Part shown: piece by piece, positions 4,843 through 61,440 of the stretch
Layout of the letters: the number at the start of each line of letters is the position of its first letter
How positions within the stretch are numbered: the stretch's first letter is position 1
Origin: an uncultured Candidatus Saccharibacteria bacterium
GTDB lineage: Bacteria > Patescibacteriota > Minisyncoccia > Phycocordibacterales > UBA9973
Assembly: GCA_964634365.1 (NCBI GenBank)
Contig: CAZWJU010000002.1
Coordinates: 103,150 to 167,149 of the forward strand
Direction: 5' to 3'
Length of the DNA: 64,000 bases
Translations under genes and position numbers: made by a program
The notes under the pieces: generated by a model
Seen by the model: only the letters and a program-made list of their open reading frames with translations
What the model was told of the DNA's origin: nothing
Databases searched by the model: none

Positions 4843-4876
4843 AAACTCTCACTACAAAGTGAGAGTTTTTTTATTT
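4843..4876. terminator. Rho-independent terminator between rpmB (+) and the MBL gene (-). Bidirectional.
   Basis: aaaaaactctcact-acaa-agtgagagttttttt; a perfect 10-bp stem flanked by an A-run and a T-run. Confidence 0.7.
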
Positions 4877-11518: not shown

Positions 11519-11553
11519 ATAAAAACTCGCACATGTGTGCGAGTTTTTATTTT
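11519..11553. terminator. Rho-independent terminator, bidirectional (recJ end / small + gene end)
   Basis: aaaactcgcacatgtgtgcgagtttttatttt. Confidence 0.65.
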
Positions 11554-13199: not shown

Positions 13200-13280
13200 A
13201 GAGATGATTGTAACACACAAGACACTTCTACCGCTCAAAAAGCACTAGCCCAAAAGAGAGTGTTGTGGTATTGTTTTTTT

Positions 13281-13688
13281 ATGGAAAATTGTATCTTTTG
13301 TAAGATAATTGCCGGAGAAATCCCTTGCAACAAAGTATACGAAGATGAAAATAGCTTCGCATTTTTGGATGTCAACCCTATAAATCCTGGTCATACTCTT
13401 CTTATACCAAAAGAGCACCATGAAAATTTACACGAAATGCCAGATCAGTTACTTGAAAAAATAACCCCTGTGGTTAAAAAAATAGCCACTGCTATAAAAA
13501 CAGGAGTTTCAGCCAGCGGAATAAACATAGGACAAAATAACGGCAAAAGTGCTGGACAAGTTATATTCCACTATCATATACACATAATCCCTCGCTTTGA
13601 CAATGATGGCCTAAAACACTGGCCAGGCAAGCCCTATGTACTGGGTGAAGCAGAAGAGATAGCTGAAAAAATCAAAAGTGTATTATAG
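13281..13688 (+). CDS. HIT-family (histidine triad) hydrolase. Start taken at the internal MENCIFCK.
   Basis: CIFCKII...NPGHTLLIPKEH...HYHIHIIP histidine triad motif. Confidence 0.8.
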   Translation: MENCIFCKIIAGEIPCNKVYEDENSFAFLDVNPINPGHTLLIPKEHHENLHEMPDQLLEKITPVVKKIATAIKTGVSASGINIGQNNGKSAGQVIFHYHIHIIPRFDNDGLKHWPGKPYVLGEAEEIAEKIKSVL

Positions 13689-13714
13689 AAAATCCCCCAT
13701 CAAGGGGGATTTAT
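13684..13714. terminator. Bidirectional terminator hairpin of the AAAATCCCC...GGGGATTT family
   Basis: gaaaatccccc-atcaa-gggggatttatttttt between convergent genes. Confidence 0.6.
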
Positions 13715-14050: not shown

Positions 14051-15430
14051 TTATTGTATTCTATAGCTCCAAAGAATCCCGTCTTTTTTATTTGTAAAGA
14101 AAATATATTTTTCGCTTCCGTCCAAGAAAAGATTTGTCATATCAATAGTTGTATTCAAAATACTAGCTGGATCAATCAAAGTATAGTAGACACTAGTATC
14201 CAAATTCATACTCCAAAGAGCATCCTCAAAAGATACTCGCCCTTGATACCAGACATCAGGATATGTTCCAGAAGAAAAACTTTTTGGCACAGCACAGAAA
14301 ACAGTAATACTATCTTTTGACCACACACACTTTTCTGGCAAAGTAGACATCCCTAGATCTGTGGTTAATTTTGTATTCAAATCATAAGAATAAAGTCTTA
14401 CTCCATTTGCAACAGACGCACTATATAAAACTTTTTTACCATCAGGGCTCATTTTTGTAGTTAAACCTACGATTCCACCAAGCACCTTATCAAAGCTTTT
14501 TTTGTTTACATCTACAGAATACATATATCCTGCGGTAATTCCTGAAGGCTTTGTAGTAAGAGTTATGGTTGATTGGTTTGGCCAAAATGATAACCATTCG
14601 GAAAGTGAAGATTCAAAAACTTGAGATTTTTTACCACCAAGAAAATCTTCTGTTATACCCACAACTCCACCAACTACAGGCTCGATAGTAAAAAATCTAG
14701 TTTTATCAGGTGAAACTGAAACATCTGTTATTCCTTCGACTAAAAAATTACCTTTCAAATCTTTAATCTCAGATGGATTCTGACTATCACCACCATCTGC
14801 AAAAACGCTAGGAGATGAAAGTGTAGCGAGATAGGTTTGTATCTTATTTGTACCATCTTCTAAATATCTAAATACAACAGATTCTCCGTTTGTGTTCCAG
14901 TAAGTATCATATATTCTAGGTATAGTTGTGTTAGAAACTCTCGTTTCAGTCAATGAGTCAGTATAAGTTTGATATATATGTGCAGTTGATTGCTCCATAT
15001 ATCTTATGGCTGTTACATCTTCTGTTATTGTCTCTTCTGTAGGCGCAGGCTCTGTTGTAAGAGGATCGCCACCAGCATCCCCTTCAATTGGAGCAGGAGG
15101 TATCGGGATTGTGCGTGTTCTTTGTGTTAAAAATGCTGTTGCACCAGAAACAGGAAAAGTTGAAATCTGTCTAAATCTCGGCACGACGACCTCACCATTT
15201 TCATCCACTTCGACTACTCCAGTATCTACAACATCATCATTTGTATCGTTACCTATTGTATTTCCACCCCGATCAGTTAACGATGGAAAAGGAAACAGAT
15301 CTGACAAATTAAAACCATTGCCATCTCCGCTAGGAGTCGTATTTTTATTCTTAAAAAATACAGCTAAAAAAACAATCAAAATGATTACAAATATAGAAAC
15401 TGTAATTAAAATTAATTTATTTTTAGACAT
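14051..15430 (-). CDS. Secreted/anchored protein, possibly a beta-propeller with TolB/PD40-like repeats. Hypothetical.
   Basis: N-terminal TM. MSPDGKKVLYSAS-like propeller repeat. Last gene of the T4SS-like cluster, in the same orientation. Confidence 0.5.
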   Translation of the reverse strand: MSKNKLILITVSIFVIILIVFLAVFFKNKNTTPSGDGNGFNLSDLFPFPSLTDRGGNTIGNDTNDDVVDTGVVEVDENGEVVVPRFRQISTFPVSGATAFLTQRTRTIPIPPAPIEGDAGGDPLTTEPAPTEETITEDVTAIRYMEQSTAHIYQTYTDSLTETRVSNTTIPRIYDTYWNTNGESVVFRYLEDGTNKIQTYLATLSSPSVFADGGDSQNPSEIKDLKGNFLVEGITDVSVSPDKTRFFTIEPVVGGVVGITEDFLGGKKSQVFESSLSEWLSFWPNQSTITLTTKPSGITAGYMYSVDVNKKSFDKVLGGIVGLTTKMSPDGKKVLYSASVANGVRLYSYDLNTKLTTDLGMSTLPEKCVWSKDSITVFCAVPKSFSSGTYPDVWYQGRVSFEDALWSMNLDTSVYYTLIDPASILNTTIDMTNLFLDGSEKYIFFTNKKDGILWSYRIQ

Positions 15431-15442
15431 TATTTTAATAAA

Positions 15443-16684
15443 CTATTTTCCATCAACTGACCAGTGCCAAGGTTCTTTACTAAAATTTATCAAAGTAGGA
15501 TTGTTGCTTTTGTTTGAAAGCCATACAAAGCATGTATTTGATTGACTTGTTATTCCACCTCCGTCACATCTAAAATCAATCGCGAGACCACTTTCATGAT
15601 TTGAATAACCAGGATAGGCTGTTGGTGGCTTACAAATTGCATTTTCATTGTAAATATTTGCTTCTCCACAATTCTCAGCCCGCAGAGCAACTTGCTCTTC
15701 ATGTGTTCTAAATCCACCACCAGATAGTTTTACTCCTTCGCTCCAAGCTTTGTTAATCATAGTCTGCATCGCGGCTGATATTCTTTGACATACATACATA
15801 TTACCACCACTTGTCTCAATATTAACAATTCCCTCAGGACATTGTGCTACGGCACCGGCTGGTATAGGACCAGTATCGTTGAGCTCAAATGGATTATATG
15901 TTTCTTCTTCGTATGCAAGATCAACACCTTTTATCCCAAGATGTAGATTTATAAGGTTCGGATTTATTGTGTTCAATATCAAGTAACTAGCCAACGCAAG
16001 CAGTAAGCCACCGAGTGCATAAGTAATCCGTTCCCTACCCTCACTTTTACCAGAAAGTGCATCTGTAGACATATACTGAATACCTCCTAGCACCATCATG
16101 ATCACAGCCAGTGCTCCAGCAAATCCAATAGTAAATTTTATAATTATATTCAAATAATCTCCTAAGTCGGTGTTTGCTGGATTAACTTCAGATATTCCAG
16201 GTATAGGTGCGAGCAAGCAATATGAATCGCTACCACTTGCACAATTAGTACTTGAAGTTGTTGTTCCAGAACCACTAAGATCGAGAGCATCTTTCCCATC
16301 AACAACGTCAACAGCTACGAGAGGTGTAGTGAAAGAATCTACAGTAGTGAGTTTTATTGTATTATCAGCCCCATCTACAAACTGATAATAGTATGTAGTG
16401 TTTGGTGTGAGCCCTGTTATAGAACCGGAAAAAGATCCATCAGCAGATGGTGTAATAGTAGGACCTGAGTTTGTTAGTGATGTAGAAGTTGTACCCCATT
16501 TAGGAACCATAGAGAAACCAGGCTCTGCTTCTACAACATCCCCTCCAAAAGAAAGAGAAGTTGGGTTTAGGTCTATTTCTCCAGAATCAATAAAAACATC
16601 GACAGCATGTGCACTCTTTGAATAAAGCAATCCTAGAAATAAAATCGCGGATAAGAATATTTTATATTTTTTAAAAATGATCAT
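15443..16684 (-). CDS. Secreted FN3 domain + VirB2/TrbC-like two-helix hydrophobic hairpin + C-terminal peptidase M15 (VanY/LAS-type) cell-wall hydrolase domain
   Basis: Signal peptide. FN3-like GLTPNTTYYYQF. Hairpin IGFAGALAVIMMVLGGIQYMS...TYALGGLLLALASYLIL. M15 region GGFRTHEEQ...YSNHESGLAIDF (SxHxxGxAxD). Confidence 0.6.
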   Translation of the reverse strand: MIIFKKYKIFLSAILFLGLLYSKSAHAVDVFIDSGEIDLNPTSLSFGGDVVEAEPGFSMVPKWGTTSTSLTNSGPTITPSADGSFSGSITGLTPNTTYYYQFVDGADNTIKLTTVDSFTTPLVAVDVVDGKDALDLSGSGTTTSSTNCASGSDSYCLLAPIPGISEVNPANTDLGDYLNIIIKFTIGFAGALAVIMMVLGGIQYMSTDALSGKSEGRERITYALGGLLLALASYLILNTINPNLINLHLGIKGVDLAYEEETYNPFELNDTGPIPAGAVAQCPEGIVNIETSGGNMYVCQRISAAMQTMINKAWSEGVKLSGGGFRTHEEQVALRAENCGEANIYNENAICKPPTAYPGYSNHESGLAIDFRCDGGGITSQSNTCFVWLSNKSNNPTLINFSKEPWHWSVDGK

Positions 16685-16688
16685 AATT

Positions 16689-17723
16689 TTAAAGATTAAC
16701 GTTTAGAGTTTTTTCTGCTGATTGAAAAAGTCTAGGCTTACTTTCAATTGATAAATTGATAAAAGCATTTCCACTAGCTCCAGCAGGTTTTCTGACAACT
16801 AAAGTATTTTTAGGATCTTGATTGTCGATTCTTGTGCCGTTGATTTTCCATTCATAATCAAGATCAGTAGAAAGTGCGTTTTTTGGAGAAAAGAAGTAAG
16901 GTTCCGCGATAATAGTTGTTTCATCTTTTCCTAAAGAAAAATACTCGCCAAGATTTTTCCTATAATTCACACCAGACAAAGGGTTGTATTCATAAAAACC
17001 AATAAATGGAGAATATGTTCTGATCGTAGATATCTTTTGAGCAGACAGACCTCCGCTGATAGCTGTTGCTTTCAGTGAGATAGTCTCTGTTGTGTTCAAG
17101 TAGCTAGATTTAAAAATAAAAGAATCTTTTGAATACCCAGAGAAGTTTGGCAGTGCGTTGAAGTTTCTTTCCCATGAAAAAGTTAAATCATTTTTAGATA
17201 GCTTAGTACTCCCCAATTTCATATCTGGTATGCCGACGACTTTAATTACAGCCTCAGAAGACGGCAACGCTTTGCCTTTATAAAAAGGTGGAGTGTATGA
17301 ATCTACCGCTTCCCATATCAAATCAATAGTCGAAGGTTCAATTGATATTGTCTTAACTAAAGTTGACCCTCTAAAAACAATTACTGCTTCTACTGCAGTT
17401 TTAGAACCACTAGCTCCAGAATTTAGAGTATATGAAGTAGCACCATTTCTTGATAAAACAGTTTTACCTGAAACTTTCCATGTAATTAGTGAGCTATTTA
17501 AATCTATAGCGTAGCTAGTGAGTTTGATTGTAACTTGTTCGTTTGGACCAGGTATTTCTGGTGTAATTTCTGCTATAACATCACTTCCGACAAGTGCTTC
17601 TGAGTAAAGTGGTGCAGAAAACATAATCACAGAGAAAATTGTGACTGAAAAAATAGAATAGAGTAGGCAATATCGCTTTTTATTCATTAAAACTATTATA
17701 AAATAAGCACCTATTGTATACAA
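16689..17723 (-). CDS. Secreted hypothetical protein. By position a possible VirB8-like or accessory T4SS component.
   Basis: N-terminal TM/signal and a beta-rich body. Sits between the VirB4 and hydrolase genes. Confidence 0.45.
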   Translation of the reverse strand: MYTIGAYFIIVLMNKKRYCLLYSIFSVTIFSVIMFSAPLYSEALVGSDVIAEITPEIPGPNEQVTIKLTSYAIDLNSSLITWKVSGKTVLSRNGATSYTLNSGASGSKTAVEAVIVFRGSTLVKTISIEPSTIDLIWEAVDSYTPPFYKGKALPSSEAVIKVVGIPDMKLGSTKLSKNDLTFSWERNFNALPNFSGYSKDSFIFKSSYLNTTETISLKATAISGGLSAQKISTIRTYSPFIGFYEYNPLSGVNYRKNLGEYFSLGKDETTIIAEPYFFSPKNALSTDLDYEWKINGTRIDNQDPKNTLVVRKPAGASGNAFINLSIESKPRLFQSAEKTLNVNL

Positions 17724-17726
17724 GGA

Positions 17727-19553
17727 CTAACTAGAAGCTTCCTCCAAATCCTTTTTAGCCTTTTGTATAGCCAGAACCTGGGATGGATCAGAAGTTATAA
17801 TCTGGTCTTCGGTATATGAAGCAATAACCTTTATAGCTACGTGCTTCAATCCAGCAAAGAATATACCCTCTCCCACTCCACTCTCTAGGAGCAAATACTT
17901 TTCTTCATCGGTTAAGTTAAAAGTCTTCTGTAATACATCTATTGAACTAGGAGATTGTTTCAAGAGTAGCTGGATGGACGAGTTTGTAACAATCGGTAGT
18001 CCATATGGACTCTTCAAGAAGTCTCCTACGTCTTGAGTAATAGTCATCAATCCTAAATAGTATTTTCTTCCACGTTTTGCGATTGAGTACAGGAAAGATG
18101 CTGTGTCTTCACTTTTCATCATCCACCAAGCCTCGTCCACCACAAGCAATCTCTTGCGAAGATTCTTACGCACAGCGTTCCAGATATAGTGAGTAACTAT
18201 ATACATTGCTACAGGCTTAAGTTCGTCTTCCATATCGCGCACTGAAAACACCACAAACTTTTTGTTGATATCTACGTTTGAAGGTTGGTTCAAAAATCCT
18301 GCCCAGCTACCTCGAGTATATTTTTGCAACTTCTGAACTATAGACTCTGTGTTCTCCATACCAGAGAGAACCATTTCAAAGTCAGACAAAAGTGGTGGCT
18401 CAATATTTGAAAAGTCAGAATTTGCAGTGATATCTTTGATAGCATAAGTTTCAGTTATTGCTCTGTCGATAATCGCATCTTCTTCTGGAGTAAGACCTCC
18501 GAGCATTATACGGAAAAGACCTACTAGATTGATTGTGTTTGATCTTAGGACATCACTAGCGGTTTCATCTTCGCGAGGTATAGGTAAGTCAAAAGGGTTT
18601 ATGTGGTGGTCAGATGATAGAGATATATTGAAATATCTTCCCCCTACTGCTTCTGCCAAATATTCGTATTCACGCTCTGGGTCGATTACAATCACCTCTG
18701 TATCAAACATGAGTGTACGGATAAGCTCTAGTTTTGTTGCATAAGATTTACCAGAACCAGACTTAGCAAAAGTAATAGAGTTGTAGTTTTCTAGAGAAAA
18801 GCGATCAAATATAACTAGACTAGAATTGTGACGGTTCACGCCGTACAAAATCCCCTTGTCACTAGTTAGGTCAAAAGAAACAAACGGAAAAATACTAGAA
18901 AGAGGTTCGGAGTTTAATTTCTGATGAACACCGAGTAGGTCTGTACCTATTGGAATCACACTCTTGAAGCCTTCTTCTTGTTGAAATAGTGCTGGCTTTA
19001 GATACACGAGCTTAGCATCCAGGATTGATTTGATTTCATTTTCTAATTTGAAAAGTTCGTCTTCGTTGTCAGCGTACATGGTTATATACAAACCAACATC
19101 GAACATCTTTTCTTGGGCTTGTTGTAGACTATCGCGCAAAGACTCAAGATCTCTGTAAGCAGTATCAAGCATCGGATCACGCACAAGACCGCGACTCTCT
19201 CGCATATTTATCTGACTCTGCACTTCAGCAACCTTTTTCTGAAATTGACGCAATATAGTAGCTGTATCAATCGGATGCACGAAAAATGAAACGTCGAATA
19301 TTTTGTCTAGATTGATTATAGGAGCAAACCAGTTGTCTGTTAGATATCTTGGATAAGATATAACAAAGAAAGTTCTCGCTATTTTATCTCCCAGGTGCAA
19401 AGCTTTTGGTTCAATTTGAAGTGCTGAAGGTGCAATAACATCCTGAAGTTCGAGTGTTGCAGCTTCATATATCTCGCCTGGCAAAACAGGCAAAACTTGA
19501 TGTTCGTTCGCCTTCTTGCTTGATTTACCTAAAATTTTATCTAAAAGTCCCAT
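17727..19553 (-). CDS. virB4: VirB4/TraC/PrgJ-type conjugative ATPase, C-terminal ATPase portion
   Basis: Walker A FAKSGSGKSYATK, Walker B LLVVDEAWWMM, and TITQDVGDF. 608 aa. Confidence 0.75.
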   Translation of the reverse strand: MGLLDKILGKSSKKANEHQVLPVLPGEIYEAATLELQDVIAPSALQIEPKALHLGDKIARTFFVISYPRYLTDNWFAPIINLDKIFDVSFFVHPIDTATILRQFQKKVAEVQSQINMRESRGLVRDPMLDTAYRDLESLRDSLQQAQEKMFDVGLYITMYADNEDELFKLENEIKSILDAKLVYLKPALFQQEEGFKSVIPIGTDLLGVHQKLNSEPLSSIFPFVSFDLTSDKGILYGVNRHNSSLVIFDRFSLENYNSITFAKSGSGKSYATKLELIRTLMFDTEVIVIDPEREYEYLAEAVGGRYFNISLSSDHHINPFDLPIPREDETASDVLRSNTINLVGLFRIMLGGLTPEEDAIIDRAITETYAIKDITANSDFSNIEPPLLSDFEMVLSGMENTESIVQKLQKYTRGSWAGFLNQPSNVDINKKFVVFSVRDMEDELKPVAMYIVTHYIWNAVRKNLRKRLLVVDEAWWMMKSEDTASFLYSIAKRGRKYYLGLMTITQDVGDFLKSPYGLPIVTNSSIQLLLKQSPSSIDVLQKTFNLTDEEKYLLLESGVGEGIFFAGLKHVAIKVIASYTEDQIITSDPSQVLAIQKAKKDLEEASS

Positions 19554-19555
19554 AA

Positions 19556-20200
19556 TTATATTTTTATATTTTGTTCAGTCTCACCTGGGTTAAATACCTT
19601 ATAAAAAAGCTCTATAACCTCTTCGGTTCCAAGTTTTGTACTACGAACACCGCAACGATTTAAACCCTGCTGCACAACAGATATACGTTGTTCAAGCTGA
19701 GTTCTCTTTTCTTCGAATAGAGAGAGGGCGTCGTTTTTCTGGCTAACTTTGTCGCCGGCGCCAGTAAGGTCAGAAAAAGCTTTTGTTATACTACCCTGTT
19801 TTGATAGGGGCGCTGCAGAATAAGGTACTACTATAAAAAAGTTTTTGGTCATTATGTTAACTTGCTCTGTGAAAGATCTTATGAATTCTATGTATTCTTT
19901 TGTCTGCACCTTGAGCAGAGGCTCAACCTGATCCTTCATGCGATTTTCGAGAGTAAGCAGATACGGCTTTATATCCAGTCTTCGTGACTGGACGATGATC
20001 TGTGTTGAAAATTCTAGGGAGTTTAGAAATGTTTGAAATTGCATTATTATAGCCTGCTGTTCGTCACTTGATTTTAAAGATAGGTTTACAGAAGAAGCCA
20101 TGATCACAGCACGCAAACCTCCGTCTTTAAGCACAACAACACCATCCCGAACTTCTTTGATCGGTACGAATGATTGTGTTGAGCGTGCGTTGATTGCCAT
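19556..20200 (-). CDS. virB4: VirB4 N-terminal domain encoded as a separate ORF. Split or frameshifted VirB4.
   Basis: FVPIKEVRDGVVVLKDGGLRAVIMASSVNL..SDEQQAIIMQFQTFLNSLEFSTQIIVQSRRLD matches the N-terminus of Gram-positive VirB4 proteins. The stop TAA is 2 nt before the ATG of the ATPase ORF, in another frame. Confidence 0.65.
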   Translation of the reverse strand: MAINARSTQSFVPIKEVRDGVVVLKDGGLRAVIMASSVNLSLKSSDEQQAIIMQFQTFLNSLEFSTQIIVQSRRLDIKPYLLTLENRMKDQVEPLLKVQTKEYIEFIRSFTEQVNIMTKNFFIVVPYSAAPLSKQGSITKAFSDLTGAGDKVSQKNDALSLFEEKRTQLEQRISVVQQGLNRCGVRSTKLGTEEVIELFYKVFNPGETEQNIKI

Positions 20201-20222
20201 AGAGTTTAGTATATCAAATAGT

Positions 20223-20627
20223 TTACTTTTTAGAGTTCACATCGAGCACATCTAGACTCCAAGATATGTCTTTGAGCTTACTTTCTGATAATCTGGGTAC
20301 AATCGGTGCAGGGAGTACATCTTCACTCTTTTTAATTTCCTTTTTATTTGGATCTTTTTTCCAAATATACAATTTACCTTGAACGAGAAATCTGATATAG
20401 GATTCTAGTATTGCAATAAAAGGCTTGTTGTTGACTTTATAAAAAGTCAGAGCAAGAGAGAGACCTGCTATAGGAACAATAAGTAAAACCGCAAAGAAAA
20501 ATGGCAGTAATTTGTAAATAATAAAACAAATACCTGCTCCACCAGCTAGGTAGACAAATTGCTTGAAAGTAAAAGGTCCAAATATTTTGTCTTCAATATC
20601 AATAAATTGAGGGACACTAAATCGCAT
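20223..20627 (-). CDS. PrgI/TcpE-like small two-TM protein (VirB3 analogue)
   Basis: MRFSVPQFIDIEDKIFGPFTFKQFVYLAGGAGICFIIY fits the PrgI-family N-terminus. Two TM helices. Immediately upstream of VirB4. Confidence 0.6.
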   Translation of the reverse strand: MRFSVPQFIDIEDKIFGPFTFKQFVYLAGGAGICFIIYKLLPFFFAVLLIVPIAGLSLALTFYKVNNKPFIAILESYIRFLVQGKLYIWKKDPNKKEIKKSEDVLPAPIVPRLSESKLKDISWSLDVLDVNSKK

Positions 20628-20680
20628 ACAAGTATTATATCAGAACTTTTTAGGATTTTAGGCACATTATATACACAGCA

Positions 20681-20731
20681 AAAATCCCCTAGTCTACTTT
20701 ATGAAAAGTGAGCACAACGGGGATTTTTGCT
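20681..20731. terminator. Long-loop inverted repeat using the same arms as the terminator family (gcaaaaatcccc ... ggggatttttgc)
   Basis: 12-bp arms separated by a 29-nt loop, downstream of the 299-aa gene on the minus strand. Confidence 0.45.
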
Positions 20732-20742
20732 GTATTTTATTT

Positions 20743-21642
20743 TTAGATTGGCTCTCTATATGGATCGCCTTGAGTTTTCTTTTCTCCCAAACCAGGGACT
20801 GTGTAATTGCTTACCTCTTTTGGAATTTTAAAAGTTGCCTGTAACTTACTTCCTACTATACCTGCACTAGGAACCTCTGGTGTGGTAGAAACCCCTTTGG
20901 ATTGTGCAAGTTTTTGGATTGGTGAGATTGAGGTGTTGCCTATAACTGGTGTTTCTAATTTTTCTACAACCTTAGGTGCTGGTGGGACAATATTTGTCGG
21001 TACTTTTATTTTTTGTAGACCAGTGTCTTCTATTTTTCCTATAATTAGAGGTTTTACAACTTCTGGATTCTTTATAGAAGTCTCGCTTTTAGGAGGATTC
21101 TCAAGTGTTCTGAGTAGCTTGTCTCTATCTAGCCTCTTTGCATCTACATCTTCTAATGCTTCTCGGACTTGCTCTCCAGGGTCTTCTTCTATTTCTATAT
21201 CAGTACTACGAAGTATTGCGCTATCATTTTGCTCTTGTTTATTTGGAGTACTTGGAAAGTTCAACTTTATTGGGGTATTTTCTTTCACTGCTTCCTCGCT
21301 TTCCAAAACCTCTTCTGACTCAGGTTCGTACGAAAAGGCGATCATGGCTTGTCTATATGGAACAAAAATCTTTTTGTTTATCTCATCGACAATTTTTATA
21401 AGCACATCGTCTGGTAGGCCTGTAATAGATTTAACTGAGTCATAGAATTCACTAGCCTTCTCTAGGCCAATAAGTACAAATGTAACTTGTCCAGATATTT
21501 GAGACATTTTATCAAGTGACACTTGATGTGTTCCTGCAATACCTTGCATGACTTTATCAACAGAGACTATACTCATAGCTTTACGCCCTGCTTCACTCAT
21601 TGATTCAAATGCTTTATTTATTTGTTCAACTGTATATGCCAT
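20743..21642 (-). CDS. Hypothetical soluble protein within the T4SS-like cluster
   Basis: 299 aa with no TM. Acidic middle and Pro/Lys-rich tail. Confidence 0.5.
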   Translation of the reverse strand: MAYTVEQINKAFESMSEAGRKAMSIVSVDKVMQGIAGTHQVSLDKMSQISGQVTFVLIGLEKASEFYDSVKSITGLPDDVLIKIVDEINKKIFVPYRQAMIAFSYEPESEEVLESEEAVKENTPIKLNFPSTPNKQEQNDSAILRSTDIEIEEDPGEQVREALEDVDAKRLDRDKLLRTLENPPKSETSIKNPEVVKPLIIGKIEDTGLQKIKVPTNIVPPAPKVVEKLETPVIGNTSISPIQKLAQSKGVSTTPEVPSAGIVGSKLQATFKIPKEVSNYTVPGLGEKKTQGDPYREPI

Positions 21643-21647
21643 ATATT

Positions 21648-24600
21648 TTAACTAGATAATTTTTCTTGAGCTTCAGACTTATTGTTTTGTTGCTGAGCTT
21701 TATCGTTAAACAATGTCTTATAAGAAGCAATTTCTCCTTTCGTTTTATCATATTGCGACTTAACTTGTGCATATTGTTGAGCTGTTATAGTGCCGTCTGC
21801 AACATCTTTTTCTGCTTTTTTCAATTGTGCTTCGTATATAGCCAAGCTAGACTGACCTTCATTCATAGCGAATTCAACATGATCAAACGATACATCTGCA
21901 GCAGTAATTTGATTTCCTGCATTCGCTGGATCCAAATTCCAAGTATCTGCAATATCTTGTAAATGTTGGTCAATTTTCTTGAGCTCATAATTAGCCCGTG
22001 TAAGCTGATCTTCTGCTTTCTTTTTCTCTTTTCCACTAATAGGTTTATTTTCTTCACCAGCTTTTTTACGTGTATCGGTAGTAAATTGTTTTTCAGATCT
22101 AGACATATCAGTTCTAGCTTCAATATTTTGTGCCTTTCTCCATTCCACTTCATTGAATACTTGACCTTGTGCGAGAGCTTGTTCACGTGCTTCGTTTCGT
22201 TTTTGTGTGTATCCATTGCCATATTCAACTTCATTTGCCTGATCATGCAATCTCTCTGAATTAACCTCTTTTGCAGTTTTTTCTTTTGCTCTACCGTTGA
22301 TAGTTTGTACTTGTCCAGAAGCATCTGTGTATGTAGTAGAAGTTTGACCTCTTTCAAATCTCTTTCTGAAATCAACTTCATCAAGATTAGGATTTTGTTT
22401 TCTTTCTTCTTCAAGAGCCTTTTCAAGATCAGCCTTCCATGCACCTGCCTTTTTATCTTGCTGGTTAGCCTCATATCCTTTGAGCAAGTATGTATCTGCT
22501 TTATCTGATTTTTCTTTTGTTTTACGTTCGTTTGCACCTTTTGCTCCACCTTCAGAACTTAGATCAAAGCGACCTGTTCCTCCAACCATATTGCCAAGAT
22601 TTTGTGCAAATTTTGCACTACCCTTTGTATCCATATCCCAACCTGTATTTTTACCAAATGCAGCACCAGCCTTTGTCTTTCGAAAATCAAATGAACTTGC
22701 TGCACCGTAGTTTGCAAGAGCAAGTTTTCTCTGTGCACTTTTATCTCCTGCCGCAGCTGCTGCCTGAAGTTCTGGATTAGCTGCTTGTCTAGCTGCATAA
22801 GCACCAACAGTTCCTCGCATAGCAAGTGCTGCTCCGCCAGTTGCTGCTCCCACCGCAAAACCTCCGACTTTATTCATAACTGACATAGATTGTTGTCCAA
22901 TTTCCCCAGACAAATCTATCGCTAGTTTTTCTGCCTTCATAAGAAGTGTGTAGACAATTGCAAAAGGAAGTAACACATACAAAAGATTTGCTCCGGCAGA
23001 TGCAGTGTCAGATATAGCAAGAGTTTTTAAATCCAAAAACAAAACTATCAAATACAAAAAGAATAAAAATACCGGTGCCAGAAATGCAGTTTTAATAAGC
23101 TCGCTAGACCAGTTAGACCAACCAACATTTTTCCAACTCTTCATACCCGGGACTATCATAGATATGAAAGCCATAGGAGAAAAGATCATGGCAACCATCA
23201 GAGATATAACTCTACCAACAAACAAAATACCAATCTTCAGAAACATCATTATCAAGAGGACGTTCATTACGACAGCTACTAAAGTAACAATGATATACAT
23301 ACCGATATCATTGTTTGCGTCTATTTCACTCTTTGAAAAAAGTGTTTGTGGGTTAAACTGACTAACCAAAGCTCCTGAAATAGTTTTCTCGTCGCCAACA
23401 CCATCCCCTCCACCGACCGATATAGTACTGTACATCAAGTTGGCTAAGATATTTGAAGTATCGACAACTATTTTAGTAAAAAATAAACTGAAGTTTATAA
23501 GTAGAGCCACAACAACAAGTGTGCCGATCATCTTCTTTGCATCAACAGAAGGTAGTCTGAGAATCGTTCCTATGGCTATGTATAAGAGTATGAAAATAAA
23601 TACTATGTTTGATATATCGCGCACAAGTGACCAACCTTGTGATATAAATTCAGATTCACTATATGTAGAGCTCTGTATTGAAAAGTGCATAAACCAGTCC
23701 AAAAACATAGCTGCGAGCCCAGCCAAGAACGCTGTTGGTTTATAGAAAACATAATAAAGTAAGTTTGCAAAACATCCAGGAAAATTTATACCAGTTGGCA
23801 CACCAAGATCATTAAACCTTATACATTCTGGTCCATTATCTGAATTTTCTGTTGCTGTTGTGCCCGTAGAAACAAGCTCAACAGTATCTCCAGTTGTTGC
23901 AGATTCATCTACACCACTAGCATCAGTTGTAAATTTAATAAATTTACTATATCCAGTTTCAGTACCTCCTGCTGAATGAAAAGATATGCGAGCATAGTAG
24001 GTCTGACCTGGCTCTAATCCATTGTTTATTATCTTAATCTTTGTATCAGCCTGGGTTGTTGCTTCAAAATTTATAAATGGGTCTAATTTTGTCTTTAAAA
24101 ATCTATCTGACAAATCTGGGGCAAGCGGTGGCGTGTCAGTACCCTCAAGCGCACCTCCTCCTTCATTTGTCCCTGTACCAATTTCTAAAAACATACCTCG
24201 ATCAGAACCGTAAACCGCACCACTAAAACTCTCAAGTGGTATTCCATCATCTTTTGTATTATATATAGCAGCCCAAGAACCAATATCTTCTATGTCATCA
24301 CCTATTATTGTATTACCGTCTCTATCTGCAGCTGCATTTGTACCACCAGCCATAGTAAAGCCGAAATTTACATCAACCCAGTTTGAACCGACATCACTTA
24401 AAGAGAGTGTTACATTGTTTGTTATGAATAAATCTCTAGATCCCAAAAATTCAGTACCAAGCAAACCAGCAGTCTGCCCTTCGTAGAGACCAGTAGGCCA
24501 TTCATCATCTAATCCTGTAGAATTAGCATTTGCTGGAAATAGGTCAGTTAAATCATTTGGATCAAAATCTGCCAATACGGTCCCTTTTGGCAAAAACAAA

Positions 24601-24659
24601 AAGGAAAAAGAGCTCATCACTATAGCGAGGAGTAGTGTCGATGCGCAAATATTCTTCAT
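21648..24659 (-). CDS. VirB6/TrbL-like polytopic membrane protein with an N-terminal secreted FN3-like domain and a long C-terminal charged/coiled-coil tail. Start at the internal MKNICAS.
   Basis: Signal peptide. FN3-like GLEPGQTYYARISF. About 8 hydrophobic helices. C-terminal 400 aa Lys/Glu/Gln/Ala-rich. Confidence 0.55.
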   Translation of the reverse strand: MKNICASTLLLAIVMSSFSFLFLPKGTVLADFDPNDLTDLFPANANSTGLDDEWPTGLYEGQTAGLLGTEFLGSRDLFITNNVTLSLSDVGSNWVDVNFGFTMAGGTNAAADRDGNTIIGDDIEDIGSWAAIYNTKDDGIPLESFSGAVYGSDRGMFLEIGTGTNEGGGALEGTDTPPLAPDLSDRFLKTKLDPFINFEATTQADTKIKIINNGLEPGQTYYARISFHSAGGTETGYSKFIKFTTDASGVDESATTGDTVELVSTGTTATENSDNGPECIRFNDLGVPTGINFPGCFANLLYYVFYKPTAFLAGLAAMFLDWFMHFSIQSSTYSESEFISQGWSLVRDISNIVFIFILLYIAIGTILRLPSVDAKKMIGTLVVVALLINFSLFFTKIVVDTSNILANLMYSTISVGGGDGVGDEKTISGALVSQFNPQTLFSKSEIDANNDIGMYIIVTLVAVVMNVLLIMMFLKIGILFVGRVISLMVAMIFSPMAFISMIVPGMKSWKNVGWSNWSSELIKTAFLAPVFLFFLYLIVLFLDLKTLAISDTASAGANLLYVLLPFAIVYTLLMKAEKLAIDLSGEIGQQSMSVMNKVGGFAVGAATGGAALAMRGTVGAYAARQAANPELQAAAAAGDKSAQRKLALANYGAASSFDFRKTKAGAAFGKNTGWDMDTKGSAKFAQNLGNMVGGTGRFDLSSEGGAKGANERKTKEKSDKADTYLLKGYEANQQDKKAGAWKADLEKALEEERKQNPNLDEVDFRKRFERGQTSTTYTDASGQVQTINGRAKEKTAKEVNSERLHDQANEVEYGNGYTQKRNEAREQALAQGQVFNEVEWRKAQNIEARTDMSRSEKQFTTDTRKKAGEENKPISGKEKKKAEDQLTRANYELKKIDQHLQDIADTWNLDPANAGNQITAADVSFDHVEFAMNEGQSSLAIYEAQLKKAEKDVADGTITAQQYAQVKSQYDKTKGEIASYKTLFNDKAQQQNNKSEAQEKLSS

Positions 24660-24750
24660 TCTTTTTGATATTTTTTGCACAATAATATTGTACGTATATT
24701 GTACCACGCAAATACACAGTAAATACAACAAAAAAAGTGAATTTCTATAG

Positions 24751-24778
24751 AAAATCCCCCACTCGGGGGATTTTCTAA
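24751..24778. terminator. Terminator hairpin of the AAAATCCCC...GGGGATTTT family
   Basis: gaaaatccccc-actc-gggggattttc. Confidence 0.55.
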
Positions 24779-24786
24779 ACTATTTA

Positions 24787-26901
24787 CTAAAAAGAATCAC
24801 CTGTATAATCACTTATTGTACCTCTATACCAACTACTACAATCGAATTCAAATTTTTGATCTGTGTTATAACCTCTTGTCTGTGTATATAGAGTACCCCA
24901 TGATGTTTCCCAACCACAAAATAAAGTTTGTCTTATATCGTCAGTTGCAATATGCCAAGCATCTGAATACATAGGCGCTGCTGCAAAGTCTAATACTTCT
25001 GATTTACACTGGGAAAATAGAGATTCTGGATTAACTGGATCAAATATATCGTAATCTTCGTTTTGATATTGCTTGAGCTCCGCATCTGCGTCTGCGATCG
25101 TGTCCGGGCGACCAATTTGTGATTTTATCGAAGTATATTGTGATGCCAATTTATTTTTAAGCTCTATGTTTTCTGGAGAATCTTCTACTGATGGATCTAT
25201 AGGTTTTGGGTGAGCTATGATACTAGCTTTTATGCTTTGAAGTAGGCCTAGAGTTCTAATCTTAGAAGATATCTTTGCATCAAGCGCTCCAATATCATCG
25301 TTGTATTTTGAAATTCTATTTACTTGATCATATATAAGTGGAGCAGATGGAATATTTTTGATTGGAAAATTAACATCTTCAAAAGGAAGCCCCCCTGTGC
25401 AACTTGATATATCTGACTGCGCTATCGCAGGAGCATCGCGTTCAGTTCCTGCTGTAAGCGCCAATTTTATATTTGATATGAGCTGAGACATGAAACCATC
25501 GAAACATTTTATTTGATCTTGAGCTTCGTCTCCATTTTCAGAATTGTTGTCTGATTTATTTTGGATCTTTTTTGATTCAAGTAAATATTGTTCACGCATT
25601 CTGGTAGTAAATTTATAATCTGGACCTGGTAGGCACTGATCTAGCTCCATAGTTTTTTGAGGAAAATCTCTAAGAATTTCTTTTGTATCCATCAATAAAT
25701 CAAACTCTGCTTGAGTATCTTCTATAGAAGTTTCAAGTAATTCACTTGGCACGCCAGTTAGCACTCCGCCTATATATACAGGAGAGGCTTCTAGGTCTAC
25801 AGTATCAACTGTATTCCACACAAAAGTATCGCCACTTGATTGGAAAGCTGAGTTATTACCTGGACCACCAGCAGTAGGATCTTCTGGATCGGCAGTAGCT
25901 ATGTTGCCTATAAGTTCTGTAATACCATTTGTAATAAGACCTGCAGCCAAATTTGAAACAGCATCGAGAATCGGACTTCCAGAACTAGCATCAGTAATCG
26001 CCTTTTGTAAAGGAGCTTCGACTGTTTGTTGTAGTTGTGCTGCGATCAGTTTACCAGGGGTAACAGTTTCGTATCTTGCACAATCGTCACTAGCATCAAA
26101 CTCTATATCACTACCGAGACTTATACTTAGACTATTCAAATACTCTTCCATGTCCTCTCCTATTGGTGCAAGACCAGATGCATCTACACCGTCTTTGTAT
26201 TGAACACATTTTTTCATAGAAAGAAAACCTCCACTTTGAGTAAGTTCTGTTTTAGTAGTACCCTGGACAGAATCTATTCTGCTTTCCAATTCCTCCGCAG
26301 ACCTCAAATACGCACCAACTGGATTGTTGGCATCATTTTGTGTGTAATCCATCCAAGCATCCCAGCCACCAACATTAAAATCATCTTCAGTAAAATCTTG
26401 CCAATTAGGTCCAATAGTTTCATCGAGAGAAAAATTCAACTTACTTTTAAAAGTATCACTATTTCCAGAAACCTGATCGGTGATCAAGTTCATTGATATG
26501 TTTCTAGCATAAGGAAAAGCACTCTCATCTGCACTAATTTCATTTACAAAAGCTTCAACTTGTTCATCTGCTACACTTTTGAAAAAACTTTTCTCGTCTC
26601 TTACAAAAAATGGGTCGCCCTTGAATCCAGTTGAACCCCAGTTTATAACCTGCTGAGTCATATTGAGTGCTACTTGTGAACCAATCTTCTTTAGCATTTT
26701 ACCCAAGACTGACTCATTGAACTCTTTGACTGTTGTTGCAGCAGTTTGAGCTGATTTTATAGCATTACCAATATTTACGGGTAGATTTGCAAGGTCTATT
26801 GTAGGCAATCCTGTAGCTTTGGCCTGATTGACATTAAAAACAAAAATAAAAGCCAGAACAAGAATTATTTTGCCGATTGATTTTAGATTCTTAGATTTCA
26901 T
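24787..26901 (-). CDS. Large secreted hypothetical protein in the T4SS-like cluster
   Basis: Signal peptide MKSKNLKSIGKIILVLAFIFVFNVNQAKA. 704 aa. No recognisable catalytic motif. Confidence 0.55.
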   Translation of the reverse strand: MKSKNLKSIGKIILVLAFIFVFNVNQAKATGLPTIDLANLPVNIGNAIKSAQTAATTVKEFNESVLGKMLKKIGSQVALNMTQQVINWGSTGFKGDPFFVRDEKSFFKSVADEQVEAFVNEISADESAFPYARNISMNLITDQVSGNSDTFKSKLNFSLDETIGPNWQDFTEDDFNVGGWDAWMDYTQNDANNPVGAYLRSAEELESRIDSVQGTTKTELTQSGGFLSMKKCVQYKDGVDASGLAPIGEDMEEYLNSLSISLGSDIEFDASDDCARYETVTPGKLIAAQLQQTVEAPLQKAITDASSGSPILDAVSNLAAGLITNGITELIGNIATADPEDPTAGGPGNNSAFQSSGDTFVWNTVDTVDLEASPVYIGGVLTGVPSELLETSIEDTQAEFDLLMDTKEILRDFPQKTMELDQCLPGPDYKFTTRMREQYLLESKKIQNKSDNNSENGDEAQDQIKCFDGFMSQLISNIKLALTAGTERDAPAIAQSDISSCTGGLPFEDVNFPIKNIPSAPLIYDQVNRISKYNDDIGALDAKISSKIRTLGLLQSIKASIIAHPKPIDPSVEDSPENIELKNKLASQYTSIKSQIGRPDTIADADAELKQYQNEDYDIFDPVNPESLFSQCKSEVLDFAAAPMYSDAWHIATDDIRQTLFCGWETSWGTLYTQTRGYNTDQKFEFDCSSWYRGTISDYTGDSF

Positions 26902-26925
26902 AAATATATTCCAATTGTAACATGA

Positions 26926-27855
26926 TTATTGTGTCACACTAGCACTTCCGCTAGTAGCGTCTATAATATCCTGATTTAAAGTTTCAAGATTTTTAAGCAT
27001 TTCATTGACTATAGAGTCTGCTTGGTAAGCACTCGCAAGAGCAGGTATGGGGTCTATTGCATACCTCGATATATCTCCAAACATTTCTGAAGTTGAAATT
27101 ATGCTATTTATGAGAGCTAGGTGCACCTCACTTTCTCCGATAACAACTGGAGTTAGAAGTAGGGCATTTGCTAGTGATTTATACTTATCAGAAACTGCTT
27201 TTAAGTCTGCATTTACTGTATTTGTATTTGGTGTAGTTACAACTGTATCAAAAAGTATAAAATCATCTACTTTTATAGGATATTTTGTAAAAGCACTATC
27301 TACTGATTGTATATACGCAATTGCATTTGCACTAGTATCAGCAACGGTTTTTATATCTTTCATATAATACACAGTCCCAGCAGGTTTATTTTGTATAAAA
27401 GCTGATATCTCGGCTATGATACTTGACTCAGACTGGTCTGTTAACTCCCCGTTTTCTTGTAGTGCAGATATGAGCGAAAACAATTGCTGACTAAATGCTT
27501 CAGTTTGAGTAAGTGTCTCTAACTCACCAGAAGAAGATGCATTTGTGTTATCTATTGAGTTCTTTATATTCGAAACCTCCACTCCATCGCTTACACCATC
27601 TCCATTAGTATCACTATTCTCTGGATCCATACCCCACAAACCTTCCTCCCAATCTTTTAGACCGTCAGCGTCGGCATCTTGCTCAACAAGCTCCCCCACC
27701 TCAAGAACAGCAAAAGGTTCTTTTTCTGCTTCCTGTTTTTTAATTATGTCTGGAATTTTAGATACCAAAAACAATATTACTAGAGCCAAGATAACAGCAA
27801 AGATAGCTTTCTGAAAATTCTTGCTAGGAAGATACTTGGAAAACTGAGTATTCAT
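26926..27855 (-). CDS. Membrane-anchored protein with Ca-binding-like DxDxDG repeats, hypothetical
   Basis: N-terminal TM. DADADGLKDWEE and DTNGDGVSDGVE resemble thrombospondin-type-3 / dockerin-like Ca loops. Confidence 0.5.
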   Translation of the reverse strand: MNTQFSKYLPSKNFQKAIFAVILALVILFLVSKIPDIIKKQEAEKEPFAVLEVGELVEQDADADGLKDWEEGLWGMDPENSDTNGDGVSDGVEVSNIKNSIDNTNASSSGELETLTQTEAFSQQLFSLISALQENGELTDQSESSIIAEISAFIQNKPAGTVYYMKDIKTVADTSANAIAYIQSVDSAFTKYPIKVDDFILFDTVVTTPNTNTVNADLKAVSDKYKSLANALLLTPVVIGESEVHLALINSIISTSEMFGDISRYAIDPIPALASAYQADSIVNEMLKNLETLNQDIIDATSGSASVTQ

Positions 27856-27892: not shown

Positions 27893-28705
27893 TTAACTCC
27901 TGTTAATATCTAAAACAGCCTTGCTGAGCAAAATCCAGTCTTTTAAGTTTAAGTCTTCGGCTCGAATCTCTGGATCAATCGAAATTGAGCTTAAAATAGA
28001 ACGCCATTGTATATCTTTTGAATAATCCTTTAGATTACCGGCTAGTTTCTTCCTTTTATGAGAGAAGCCTATTTTTAACAATCTAAAGAAAATAGACTCA
28101 TGGTCAAAGTTTTCAAAATTCTTGCGGGAAATATTTTTGACCGCCAAAATAGCTGAATCAACTTTTGGAATTGGGAAAAAAGAACCTTTGACAACCTTCT
28201 GTGCATATACAGGATCTCCGTAGGCTTTTATAGAAATCGATAAAATACTCTCTTTACCATCTTTGGCAACCACTCTCTTTGCGACTTCATCTTGGATAAG
28301 TAACACAAGTACAGAAGGCTGATATTTGGCAGACAAAAACTTTTCAAAAATTGCACCTGTAATATTGTACGGAATATTTGCGATTAGCTTATATTCTAAA
28401 TCTTTATAAAAAGATAAATTTTCTGGATCAAAATCTAAAGCATCGCCCTCTATAACATCTAGCTTCCCCTCTCCAATCTCGGTCTTGAACTCATCTTGTA
28501 AAAACGATGCTAGCTCATGATCTTTTTCTATTGCGACTACTTTACCTGCAAGTTTTAAAAGCGAACGTGTGAGCACGCCCTTGCCTGGACCAATCTCTAG
28601 TACAACATCCCCTGCATTTACATCACTCACATCTATCATCTTTGAAATTGCCCCGGGTGAGTTCAAGAAATTTTGTCCTAAAGATTTTTTAGCAATGTGT
28701 TTCAT
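27893..28705 (-). CDS. rsmA: 16S rRNA (adenine1518/1519-N6)-dimethyltransferase
   Basis: SLGQNFLNSPGAISKMIDV...VLEIGPGKGVLTRSL SAM motif. Confidence 0.85.
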   Translation of the reverse strand: MKHIAKKSLGQNFLNSPGAISKMIDVSDVNAGDVVLEIGPGKGVLTRSLLKLAGKVVAIEKDHELASFLQDEFKTEIGEGKLDVIEGDALDFDPENLSFYKDLEYKLIANIPYNITGAIFEKFLSAKYQPSVLVLLIQDEVAKRVVAKDGKESILSISIKAYGDPVYAQKVVKGSFFPIPKVDSAILAVKNISRKNFENFDHESIFFRLLKIGFSHKRKKLAGNLKDYSKDIQWRSILSSISIDPEIRAEDLNLKDWILLSKAVLDINRS

Positions 28706-28708
28706 ATA

Positions 28709-34756: not shown

Positions 34757-34783
34757 ATATTTTAGATAAAATTGATAATTGTT

Positions 34784-61140: not shown

Positions 61141-61440
61141 AAAAAAACCCGCAGAACTATTGTCTGCGGGGCGGGTCCACGGCGTGGGACCCTGTTTTTT
61201 GCCGGGGGGGGTCATGACTTCCTCCTGGCTCTCTTTTTTGGCCCAGTCGCTTCCGGTTATGGAAGTCTTCCTTTCGAAAGACTTCGGCGTAGTGCGACGG
61301 ATCGGGCCTCTGTTGTGCCCCGGCTCTTGGCCTAGCCCCTATCCTTTCGGTAGGGGGGCGGGCTCTGGCACGGGGGCTTCCGGCGTTTTAGACGTCCTTT
61401 ATCGACGCATAGGTAGTATAGCACAGTGACTAATCTTTGT
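61141..61440. ncRNA. GC-rich structured non-coding segment. It appears to be a divergent fifth member of the repeat-element family; strand uncertain. A minus-strand terminator sits at 61141-61175.
   Basis: GC far above the local background. GNRA-capped hairpin gaagtcttt-c-GAAA-g-gaagacttc. Shares tttcgaaagact + tagtgcgacgg with copy D and ccgg...tagacgt with copies A/B. No credible ORF. Confidence 0.45.

Follow-up and report, generated by a model that had tools for sequence, protein, structure and literature searches.

What is a set of conjugation-type genes doing in the chromosome of a small bacterium when no relaxase or coupling protein stands beside it? This question is raised by a gene cluster in a 64,000-nt stretch of DNA, hereafter called the window, which covers positions 103,150 to 167,149 of contig CAZWJU010000002.1 (assembly GCA_964634365.1) from an uncultured Candidatus Saccharibacteria bacterium. 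The cluster encodes a type IV secretion system (T4SS) of the kind already described for Patescibacteria between 2023 and 2025, i.e. a chromosomal, relaxase-less system derived from the MPF-FATA conjugation machinery, and does not constitute a new system. Taken as a whole, it is very probably a T4SS that originated from MPF-FATA conjugation machinery, was kept without the DNA-processing parts and serves as a conduit between an episymbiont and its host.

The cluster consists of ten co-directional open reading frames (ORFs) on the minus strand, which are separated by short intergenic gaps and span 14051–27855 (list of ORFs with translations). A preliminary description of this DNA had counted eleven genes, although it listed ten, and let the cluster start at 15443, which cuts off the 459-aa gene (14051–15430) in its own list. 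The common direction and the protein lengths that it gave were found to be correct. In transcription order, the genes are:

26926–27855, minus strand: 309-aa gene, ORF; opens the conserved block, 37 nt after the RsmA gene
24787–26901, minus strand: 704-aa gene, ORF; secreted, Cys-containing, fast-evolving extracellular component
21648–24731, minus strand: VirB6-like gene, 1027-aa ORF; putative extended VirB6-like channel subunit
20743–21642, minus strand: 299-aa gene, ORF; cytoplasmic protein
20223–20627, minus strand: PrgI/VirB3-like gene, 134 aa; small membrane protein
19556–20200, minus strand: TrsD gene, 214 aa; free-standing homologue of the VirB4 N-terminal domain
17727–19553, minus strand: VirB4 gene, 608 aa; TrsE-type ATPase
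16689–17723, minus strand: gene for a protein with three Ig-like domains, 344 aa; membrane-anchored, likely start at 17687, in the TrsF/TraF position
15443–16684, minus strand: gene for a fusion of a VirB2-like hairpin and a VanY domain, 413 aa
14051–15430, minus strand: 459-aa gene; membrane-anchored extracellular protein, possible beta-propeller, last gene of the conserved block

The cluster is real and intact, and the recurrence of the same ten-gene order in 80 related genomes is far beyond chance. Relatives were collected by a VirB4 scan of one genome per GTDB species, which yielded 560 confirmed relatives; the counts out of 80 loci given here refer to the best 80 of these. These 80 are without exception metagenome-assembled genomes of Patescibacteria (labelled Paceibacterota, Nomurabacteria, Parcubacteria and similar), with VirB4 proteins 77–86% identical to that of the window. 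Judged by these sequence matches, the window belongs to a Paceibacteria/Nomurabacteria-like lineage of Patescibacteria. Identical copies of window proteins are encoded on a 231,850-bp NCBI contig and in Logan contigs of run SRR12487045.

The 608-aa VirB4 protein reaches 378.8 bits with the NCBIfam model conju_CD1110, which is above the curated cut-off of 325, and also matches P-loop_TraG (92 bits) and AAA_10 (36.6 bits). Its Walker A (SGSGKS) and Walker B (LLVVDEAW) motifs, as read in the sequence, are both intact. The assignment as a VirB4 ATPase is hence upheld, whereas the earlier impression of a VirB4 'in two pieces' is not, as the pieces are two conserved genes for TrsD and a TrsE-type VirB4. 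The smaller protein matches the NCBIfam model VirB4_plasma (48 bits, profile positions 101–285) and the TrsD/TraD model NF041427 (35.5 bits), whereby these scores of 35–48 bits lie under the full-length cut-offs of the models for TrsD and the VirB4 N-domain; a precomputed match to the TraC-like family PF26593 is also available. Between the two genes, the stop codon TAA is followed by 2 nt and the start codon ATG, and the ORFs lie in different frames. They are likewise separate ORFs in 76 out of 76 relatives, with variable spacing and frame. The alignment of VirB4 with TrsE of plasmid pSK41 runs from end to end (13–576 against 13–623), while the alignment with PrgJ of pCF10 begins only at PrgJ residue 233. 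Because of the separate frames, the separate genes in all 76 relatives and the alignment over the length of TrsE, the two ORFs represent the TrsD plus TrsE architecture and not a disrupted gene. An in-frame stop, a recoded gene or a broken VirB4 was considered as well and is ruled out by the different frames and by the separate genes in all relatives. The TrsD plus TrsE-type arrangement is ancestral, and it has been reported as the commonest one in Patescibacteria (PMC12102498).

The 134-aa PrgI/VirB3 protein features a hydrophobic hairpin at residues 24–51 and scores 39.1 bits with PF12666 (cut-off 27), next to a TcpE match of 20 bits. It was found in 76 of the 80 loci with 44–64% identity (about 52%), which confirms the earlier assignment. 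Of the Pfam searches proposed in the preliminary description, those for AAA_10 and PrgI thus both gave a match.

The VirB6-like ORF comprises 1027 codons, while a 100%-identical database copy starts 24 codons later and is 1003 aa long; position 24659 is likely the true start. The protein combines a signal or anchor helix with an FN3-like ectodomain, and it has a conserved Cys pair, about six to seven helices that make up the membrane core (residues ~320–640) and a long charged C-terminal tail (~390 aa). The membrane core is strongly conserved among relatives. When the predicted fold was compared with 350,542 chains using Foldseek, two TrwI/VirB6 chains came out on top (E ~0.01, probability 0.99). 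Sequence profiles did not reproduce this result. Pfam gave nothing significant for the window protein and 25 orthologues, with TrbL unmatched, and the same holds for a profile search against PDB sequences and for hhalign against pCF10 PrgH. The best match of a VirB6-like hidden Markov model (HMM) among the ORFs of pCF10 and pSK41 was TrsL, with an E value of only 0.097. The VirB6-like assignment of the preliminary description is therefore supported by the fold search and not by sequence profiles, including the TrbL family of Pfam. Based on the predicted fold, the large membrane protein probably acts as an extended VirB6-like channel subunit and would supply the polytopic VirB6 of the machine. 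An FN3-like ectodomain and a long charged tail suit the 'extended VirB6' type (PMC12857230).

The 413-aa protein had been described as an M15 peptidase in the position of the PrgK-like hydrolase. A VanY match of 38.1 bits (cut-off 25) and the Zn-binding motif SxHxxGxAxD are in line with this, but the protein turned out to be more than a peptidase. It starts with a signal peptide, followed by an FN3-like region (~70–120), a two-helix hairpin resembling VirB2-like pilins (~175–240) and the C-terminal VanY/M15 domain (297–409). Residues 174–240 show weak matches to T4SS_pilin (16 bits) and to Mbov_0395 pilin-like proteins. Among 36 orthologues, T4SS_pilin (PF18895) was found in 33 and TrbC/VirB2 in 11, and the C-terminal modules vary: NlpC/P60 (8), VanY (7), YkuD (4), Amidase_5 (4), SLT (2), CHAP (2) and M15_4 (1). 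Public homologues combine PF18895 with PF02557, PF01464, PF00877 or PF13539, and even proteins that are 81% and 63% identical over the N-terminal part carry other C-terminal modules. This hairpin, which is the conserved core of the protein, forms part of a larger protein in 71 related loci. The window copy scores 126.7 bits with an HMM of the hairpin segment, partly by construction since the underlying alignment included the window protein. No additional free pilin gene was detected in the window with the hairpin HMM, and the small ORFs at 60.5–64 kb are not pilins, so the hairpin of the 413-aa protein is the sole pilin hairpin of the 64 kb. Judging from these matches, a VirB2-like element near virB4 appears to be present as a domain of a larger protein rather than as a free pilin. 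The protein also falls into the VirB1-like functional class, i.e. a membrane-anchored wall hydrolase next to virB4, and is not a homologue of VirB1 (SLT) in this genome. A mention of the hairpin/hydrolase fusion was not found in the survey paper PMC12102498.

As a separate observation, the Paceibacteria hairpin HMM was compared with all ORFs of pCF10 and pSK41. The two best, albeit weak, matches were TrsF (E 0.011) and TrsB (E 0.018); the two pSK41 ORFs concerned, TrsB/TrsF, are located at 25115–25432 and 28614–29894, and TrsB is annotated as a member of the CagC family (VirB2-like). VirB2-like hairpins may thus go further back in the Gram-positive subclass with TrsD than commonly stated.

The fusion bears on whether the machine transports anything at all. 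VirB4 could merely assemble a short VirB2-based fibre or a hydrolase-bearing stalk by which the symbiont sticks to its host and the wall is opened, in which case the cluster would encode an organelle for attachment or wall remodelling without transport of a substrate. VirB4 is known to drive pilus biogenesis (PMC12102498), the sole VirB2-like element is joined to a wall hydrolase in one protein and accompanied by Ig-like and propeller-like surface proteins, and no type IV coupling protein (T4CP) that could recruit substrates is encoded nearby. However, a hairpin with about 170 extra residues on each side would hardly polymerise like a canonical VirB2 pilin, a VirB6-like channel subunit with a strongly conserved membrane core has been retained, and protein-secreting T4SSs that lack a T4CP are known, namely Ptl and Brucella VirB (PMC12102498, PMC12857230). 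We consider such a purely structural organelle improbable.

The remaining proteins of the cluster are less well characterised by homology. For the 344-aa protein, a VirB8/NTF2 fold had been suggested as worth looking for. The predicted structure (pLDDT 92.7) instead shows an N-terminal helix and three tandem Ig-like beta-sandwiches, and the VirB8/NTF2 fold is excluded because the structural neighbours are generic Ig/FN3 domains only. With a single N-terminal hydrophobic helix, this protein is more likely membrane-anchored than secreted, contrary to its first description. The 309-aa protein has a single membrane helix at 17–35 and a short, presumably Ca-binding TSP3-like repeat at residues ~59–104 (CglD/TSP3-like stretch, 24 bits; TSP3_bac in one orthologue), with zero relatives among PDB sequences. 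The 704-aa protein features a signal-peptide-like N-terminus, conserved motifs and the invariant residues Cys232 and Cys274, and neither the window protein nor its orthologues match Pfam families or PDB sequences. Of these 'two secreted proteins' of the preliminary description, the 704-aa protein retains this status, whereas the 309-aa protein is more likely membrane-anchored. The stretch that follows the signal peptide of the 704-aa protein (residues ~30–50) reads 'GLPTIDLANLPVNIGNAI', of which xPVxD is common to several orthologues. We take its N-terminal 'GLPTIDLANL' to be reminiscent of TrbJ/VirB5 (pilus-tip) proteins, a resemblance unsupported by the profile and PDB sequence searches.

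The 299-aa protein diverges rapidly, lacks a transmembrane segment and consists of a conserved N-terminal part of ~100 aa and a low-complexity acidic and Pro-rich remainder. No family matched it in Pfam or NCBIfam, and tblastn detected the gene in 7 of the 80 loci only. An iterative profile search recovered 63 ORFs of this family between the VirB6-like and PrgI genes, in 54 loci holding both. The 459-aa protein, which had been called secreted and propeller-like, carries an N-terminal helix at 6–24 and is more likely membrane-anchored. Its propeller is weakly supported by a TolB match of 16 bits and by PD40 in two orthologues; no PDB sequence matched. For the 704-, 459- and 309-aa proteins, Pfam searches with orthologues and profiles against PDB sequences yielded nothing usable with regard to their roles.

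Across the 80 loci, the conserved order is (UvrD)-RsmA-309-704-VirB6-like-299 family-PrgI-TrsD-VirB4-3xIg-pilin/hydrolase-459, which settles the synteny check proposed earlier in favour of conservation. RsmA is adjacent in the same way in 31 loci and UvrD in 18. Sequence identity, by contrast with gene order, falls stepwise: VirB4 is ~80% identical (77–86%), TrsD about 62% (50–69%) and PrgI about 52%, while the extracellular and envelope proteins reach 21–57%. Among the latter, the 459-aa gene was found in 68 of the 80 loci (27–45% identity), the 704-aa gene in 42 (21–36%) and the 309-aa gene at the same position in 35 (23–35%). The neighbouring housekeeping proteins are less conserved than VirB4, with 45–62% for UvrD and 33–56% for RsmA. 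This stepwise decrease indicates that the motor is under unusually strong constraint and that the surface parts change quickly. Such a pattern would fit an essential motor combined with a rapidly adapting host interface.

The cluster could nevertheless belong to an ordinary integrated conjugative element (ICE), intact or degenerate, with the relaxase, coupling protein and oriT located outside the window. Every recognisable part is homologous to conjugation genes of Gram-positive bacteria, the gene order resembles both PrgH-I-J-K of pCF10 and TrsC-D-E-F-G of pSK41, many genomes of Patescibacteria have VirD4-like genes at other sites, and relaxases are encoded in 103 genomes (PMC12102498). Within the window, however, none of the families of relaxases, T4CPs and integrases was found when 40 ORFs, i.e. 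every plausible ORF of at least about 200 aa except the RsmA- and UvrD-like genes, were compared with Pfam. Searches by tblastn with pCF10 PcfC, pSK41 TrsK, PcfG, Nes and MobV gave 0 matches in the window and 84 loci (1.49 Mb, covering ±10 kb around virB4 in the relatives), whereas PrgJ as positive control gave 82 matches in the same search. The sequence that continues the window on the right (about 4.3 kb) encodes TrmB, HU and hypothetical proteins, and again no relaxase or T4CP. The window holds no tRNA genes or Rfam families and no att-like direct repeats or oriT-like inverted repeats, only terminator-like hairpins, bearing in mind that an oriT is unrecognisable without a known relaxase family. 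Its G + C content is even (0.32–0.40), without a compositional shift. The lack of a relaxase and a VirD4/TcpA coupling ATPase in the 64 kb, as first noticed in the sequence, is confirmed by the Pfam and tblastn scans; the repeat scan likewise showed no oriT-like sequence, and neither a relaxase nor a coupling protein adjoins the cluster in the ~4.3 kb to the right or in the ±10 kb of the relatives.

The position next to RsmA and UvrD in the relatives mentioned above, the conservation of VirB4 beyond that of its housekeeping neighbours and a published VirB4 tree with a phylum-specific clade following taxonomy (PMC12102498) argue against a mobile element as well. An ordinary ICE at this locus is excluded because DNA-processing genes and att repeats are lacking and the chromosomal position is conserved, and the cluster is not a decaying remnant because all ten genes are intact. 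That an ICE with its DNA-processing genes elsewhere explains the cluster is extremely unlikely. The cluster is chromosomal and non-mobile and shows none of the hallmarks of a mobile element. The proposal of a repurposed, non-mobile T4SS of the Gram-positive type in a small-genome episymbiont is supported by synteny, uniform composition, the lack of a T4CP or relaxase nearby and the literature.

This literature describes the same kind of system. Wang et al. (2023) identified an essential T4SS in Southlakia epibionticum by Tn-seq, which is needed for epibiotic growth in Saccharibacteria (PMC10633639). It is nearest to Gram-positive conjugative systems, includes essential pilin genes and has no recognisable relaxase or coupling protein (PMC10633639). 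Of the 3,035 Patescibacteria genomes surveyed by Quiñonero-Coronel et al. (2025), 2,407 contained VirB4 of a monophyletic clade nested in MPF-FATA; the clade is specific to the phylum and tracks taxonomy (PMC12102498). Among the associated components, TrsD was the most frequent in that survey; PrgI/VirB3, VirB6 and VirB2-like pilins occur near virB4, relaxases are rare (103 genomes), and KsgA/RsmA and replication genes are often found close by (PMC12102498). A review from 2025 regards the patescibacterial T4SSs as a new branch of the T4SS superfamily (PMC12857230).

A role in DNA uptake was one of the functions offered in the preliminary description. In analogy to ComB of Helicobacter pylori or the archaeal Ced system, the T4SS would bring DNA from the host or the environment through the wall, ComEC would pass it across the membrane and RecJ would process it. 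VirB2/3/4/6-like parts without relaxase and T4CP are present, as in ComB, and the presence of competence genes in the same window was verified by Pfam scans: ComEC (8242–9735, 6 kb away), a metallo-beta-lactamase (MBL)-fold protein (4871–5731), RecJ (11547–13238) and the type IV pilus genes for PilB (45675–47432), PilC (44445–45662) and a pilin (42039–42641). Genes for competence and recombination lie together with the T4SS in the class ABY1 (PMC12102498). Across the relatives, in contrast, RecJ and ComEC are part of the conserved neighbourhood in none of the 80 loci. VirB4 matches the CedB model with 32.9 bits, far under the cut-off of 700, which is explained by the shared VirB4/HerA fold; CedD reached 12.8 bits (cut-off 600), and no other Ced or ComB family was found with Pfam and NCBIfam. 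Natural competence of S. epibionticum requires type IV pili and ComEC, and a ΔcomEC mutant is viable yet non-competent while the T4SS is essential, according to a review that summarises Wang et al. 2023 (PMC12857230; see also PMC10633639). The essential role of the T4SS is hence not exerted via ComEC (PMC12857230). The missing synteny and these published ΔcomEC data disfavour the uptake variant (PMC12857230), and we regard a dedicated DNA-uptake T4SS as unlikely.

Returning to the T4SS as a conduit between episymbiont and host, its parts can be arranged into a working model. At the cytoplasmic membrane, TrsD and VirB4 would bind to VirB3 and VirB6 and supply the energy for assembly and transport, with VirB6 as the membrane channel or the base of a stalk. 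The VirB2-like hairpin would anchor the peptidoglycan-cutting domain outside, at or in the machine, where it could open the wall of the symbiont and possibly that of the host. The fast-evolving Ig-like, putative propeller and Cys-rich proteins would build the extracellular part that meets the host. Once assembled, the machine would pass proteins or other macromolecules between episymbiont and host upon contact, and would not act in conjugation.

As for what is transported, protein export to the host or the host surface is the favoured function. Export of proteins or effectors, or breaching of the host envelope, has a chance somewhat below even. The import of host molecules, DNA included, is possible and on the unlikely side. 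A role as pilus or in adhesion only seems improbable to us, and true conjugation very unlikely.

Several points weigh against this reading of the cluster. The T4SS_pilin match of the window protein is under the Pfam cut-off (16 vs. 26.6 bits), so that the assignment leans on orthologues. The VirB6 assignment comes from a predicted structure, with modest TM-scores of 0.30–0.37, the Foldseek E value of ~0.01 given above and no match from sequence profiles. Five of the ten cluster proteins are without an assigned role. The lack of T4CP and relaxase applies to the 64-kb window, ~4 kb beyond it and ±10 kb in the relatives, the latter at the sensitivity of BLAST, and VirD4-like genes are present elsewhere in most Patescibacteria genomes (PMC12102498); in S. 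epibionticum, they are reported to be non-essential (PMC12102498). Finally, the essentiality data stem from Saccharimonadia with arrays of free-standing pilins and not from Paceibacteria with the fusion.

One further idea concerns the exchange of hydrolase modules. Rather than forming a pilus subunit, the VirB2-like hairpin might serve as a dock through which wall-cutting enzymes are attached, interchangeably, to the machine at its tip or base, and the frequent exchange of modules might track the chemistry of the host wall. We consider this doubtful. If true, the type of hydrolase would predict the host range and the T4SS would be a device for breaching host walls.

The patescibacterial T4SS is described as the first one that was demonstrated to be indispensable for its carrier's survival (PMC12857230), and it is relevant to the question of how so much of bacterial diversity manages to live on other cells. 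The cluster of the window is one more Paceibacteria copy of a kind that is catalogued in about 2,400 genomes. What it adds is incremental: support for a VirB6 fold, three Ig-like domains in place of the expected VirB8, the TrsD/TrsE split, the hairpin/hydrolase fusion and the conservation gradient. These points may guide experiments; the overall picture is unchanged.

The cluster is embedded in housekeeping genes. An RsmA/KsgA-like gene (27893–28705) lies 37 nt upstream of the block and is preceded by a gene for a UvrD/PcrA-like helicase (28709–30625). Past the end of the block follow a small gene with its own strong promoter-like site (14039–14012, 12/12 consensus match, directly after the 459-aa gene), a HIT-family gene and RecJ. 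In the promoter scan, the number of sites was no higher than in shuffled sequence. The rest of the window encodes housekeeping functions (RNase H, SOD, PGK, TIM, NusA, trigger factor, pyrophosphatase and RNase Y) as well as the competence and type IV pilus genes. Within the block, a consensus scan returned one feature, a pattern match only:

24756–24770, minus strand: terminator-like GC hairpin between the 704-aa and VirB6-like genes

It is a possible internal transcript boundary. A GC hairpin motif of 29 nt (TATAGAAAATCCCCC...GGGGGATTT) occurs in two copies at gene ends (13684–13712 and 24746–24774) that are 79% identical and, going by their sequence, look like bidirectional terminators of a shared consensus.

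Some other features of the window are recorded here in their own right. At 147–1895 (minus strand), a 582-aa protein with a Peptidase_S74 intramolecular chaperone domain is encoded, which is typical of phage tail fibres and endosialidases, and the gene next to it (1902–3791) specifies CarboxypepD_reg-like domains; both probably act as fibres or adhesins on the cell surface. Just upstream of the UvrD-RsmA-T4SS block, at 31412–36700 (minus strand), two adjacent genes encode proteins of 1114 and 638 aa, which matched zero Pfam families. A 430-aa protein (51274–52566, plus strand) carries Por_Secre_tail, a C-terminal sorting signal of type IX secretion, with 45 bits (cut-off 27). This is unexpected in monoderm Paceibacteria, for which a type IX secretion system is not anticipated. 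A GC-rich island at 61150–61430 (minus strand; 0.54–0.62 against a background of ~0.37) contains no convincing ORF. Compared with shuffled sequence, the minus strand has the better fold (z −3.09), and at its end a stem precedes U8, as in an intrinsic terminator. Rfam gave no match for it, even at E ≤ 1, and it is probably an unannotated structured RNA.

The cluster can also be compared to named systems. With ComB of H. pylori it shares the reduced set of parts, and the organism also has ComEC; ComB, unlike the cluster of the window, is a diderm system with a VirB7–10 core. The VirB6-like protein is 9–15% identical to R388 TrwI, Legionella DotA and 'extended VirB6' proteins, which amounts to no detectable sequence similarity, and differs from the VirB6 family by its additional N-terminal FN3-like ectodomain and its charged ~390-aa tail.

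Similarities also exist to the conjugative plasmids of Gram-positive bacteria. The cluster resembles pCF10 (PrgH-I-J-K-L) in the order VirB6, VirB3, VirB4 and hydrolase, with VirB6 upstream of VirB3, so the prgH-I-J-K order that had been noticed at first is indeed recognisable. The best BLAST match of VirB4 is pCF10 PrgJ (25% identity, E 5e-41), which is annotated under conju_CD1110. In PrgJ, however, the N-domain is part of the protein, whereas the window encodes it separately as TrsD; PrgK is a LytM/SLT/CHAP protein with a plain transmembrane anchor, and PrgL is VirB8-like, a fold that was not found in the cluster. pCF10 further possesses the T4CP PcfC, the relaxase PcfG and the adhesin PrgB. 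In local order and in the TrsD/TrsE split, the cluster is closest to pSK41, pGO1 and pIP501 (TrsC-D-E-F-G within TrsB-C-D-E-F-G), where a VirB3-like protein, TrsD, a short VirB4, a membrane protein and a wall hydrolase follow one another. VirB4 is 23% identical to its pSK41 counterpart, and the other proteins are undetectable by BLAST. In contrast to the window, pSK41 is a plasmid with a T4CP (TrsK), relaxases and a topoisomerase; its VirB6 (TrsL, 305 aa) is short and distal, and TrsF is polytopic instead of Ig-like.

The closest resemblance is to the T4SS of the Patescibacteria clade, including SEML1_0006–0019 of S. epibionticum. The cluster has every part by which this system is recognised, namely a monoderm VirB4 with a separate TrsD, PrgI/VirB3, a VirB6-like protein and a VirB2-like element, without an adjacent relaxase or T4CP. 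It also shares the peptidoglycan hydrolases downstream of virB4, the chromosomal location with KsgA/RsmA near and the wide conservation in the phylum. The two differ in that S. epibionticum has six free-standing VirB2-like pilins and separate genes for a peptidase and a lysozyme, whereas the cluster of the window has one hairpin within a hydrolase fusion.

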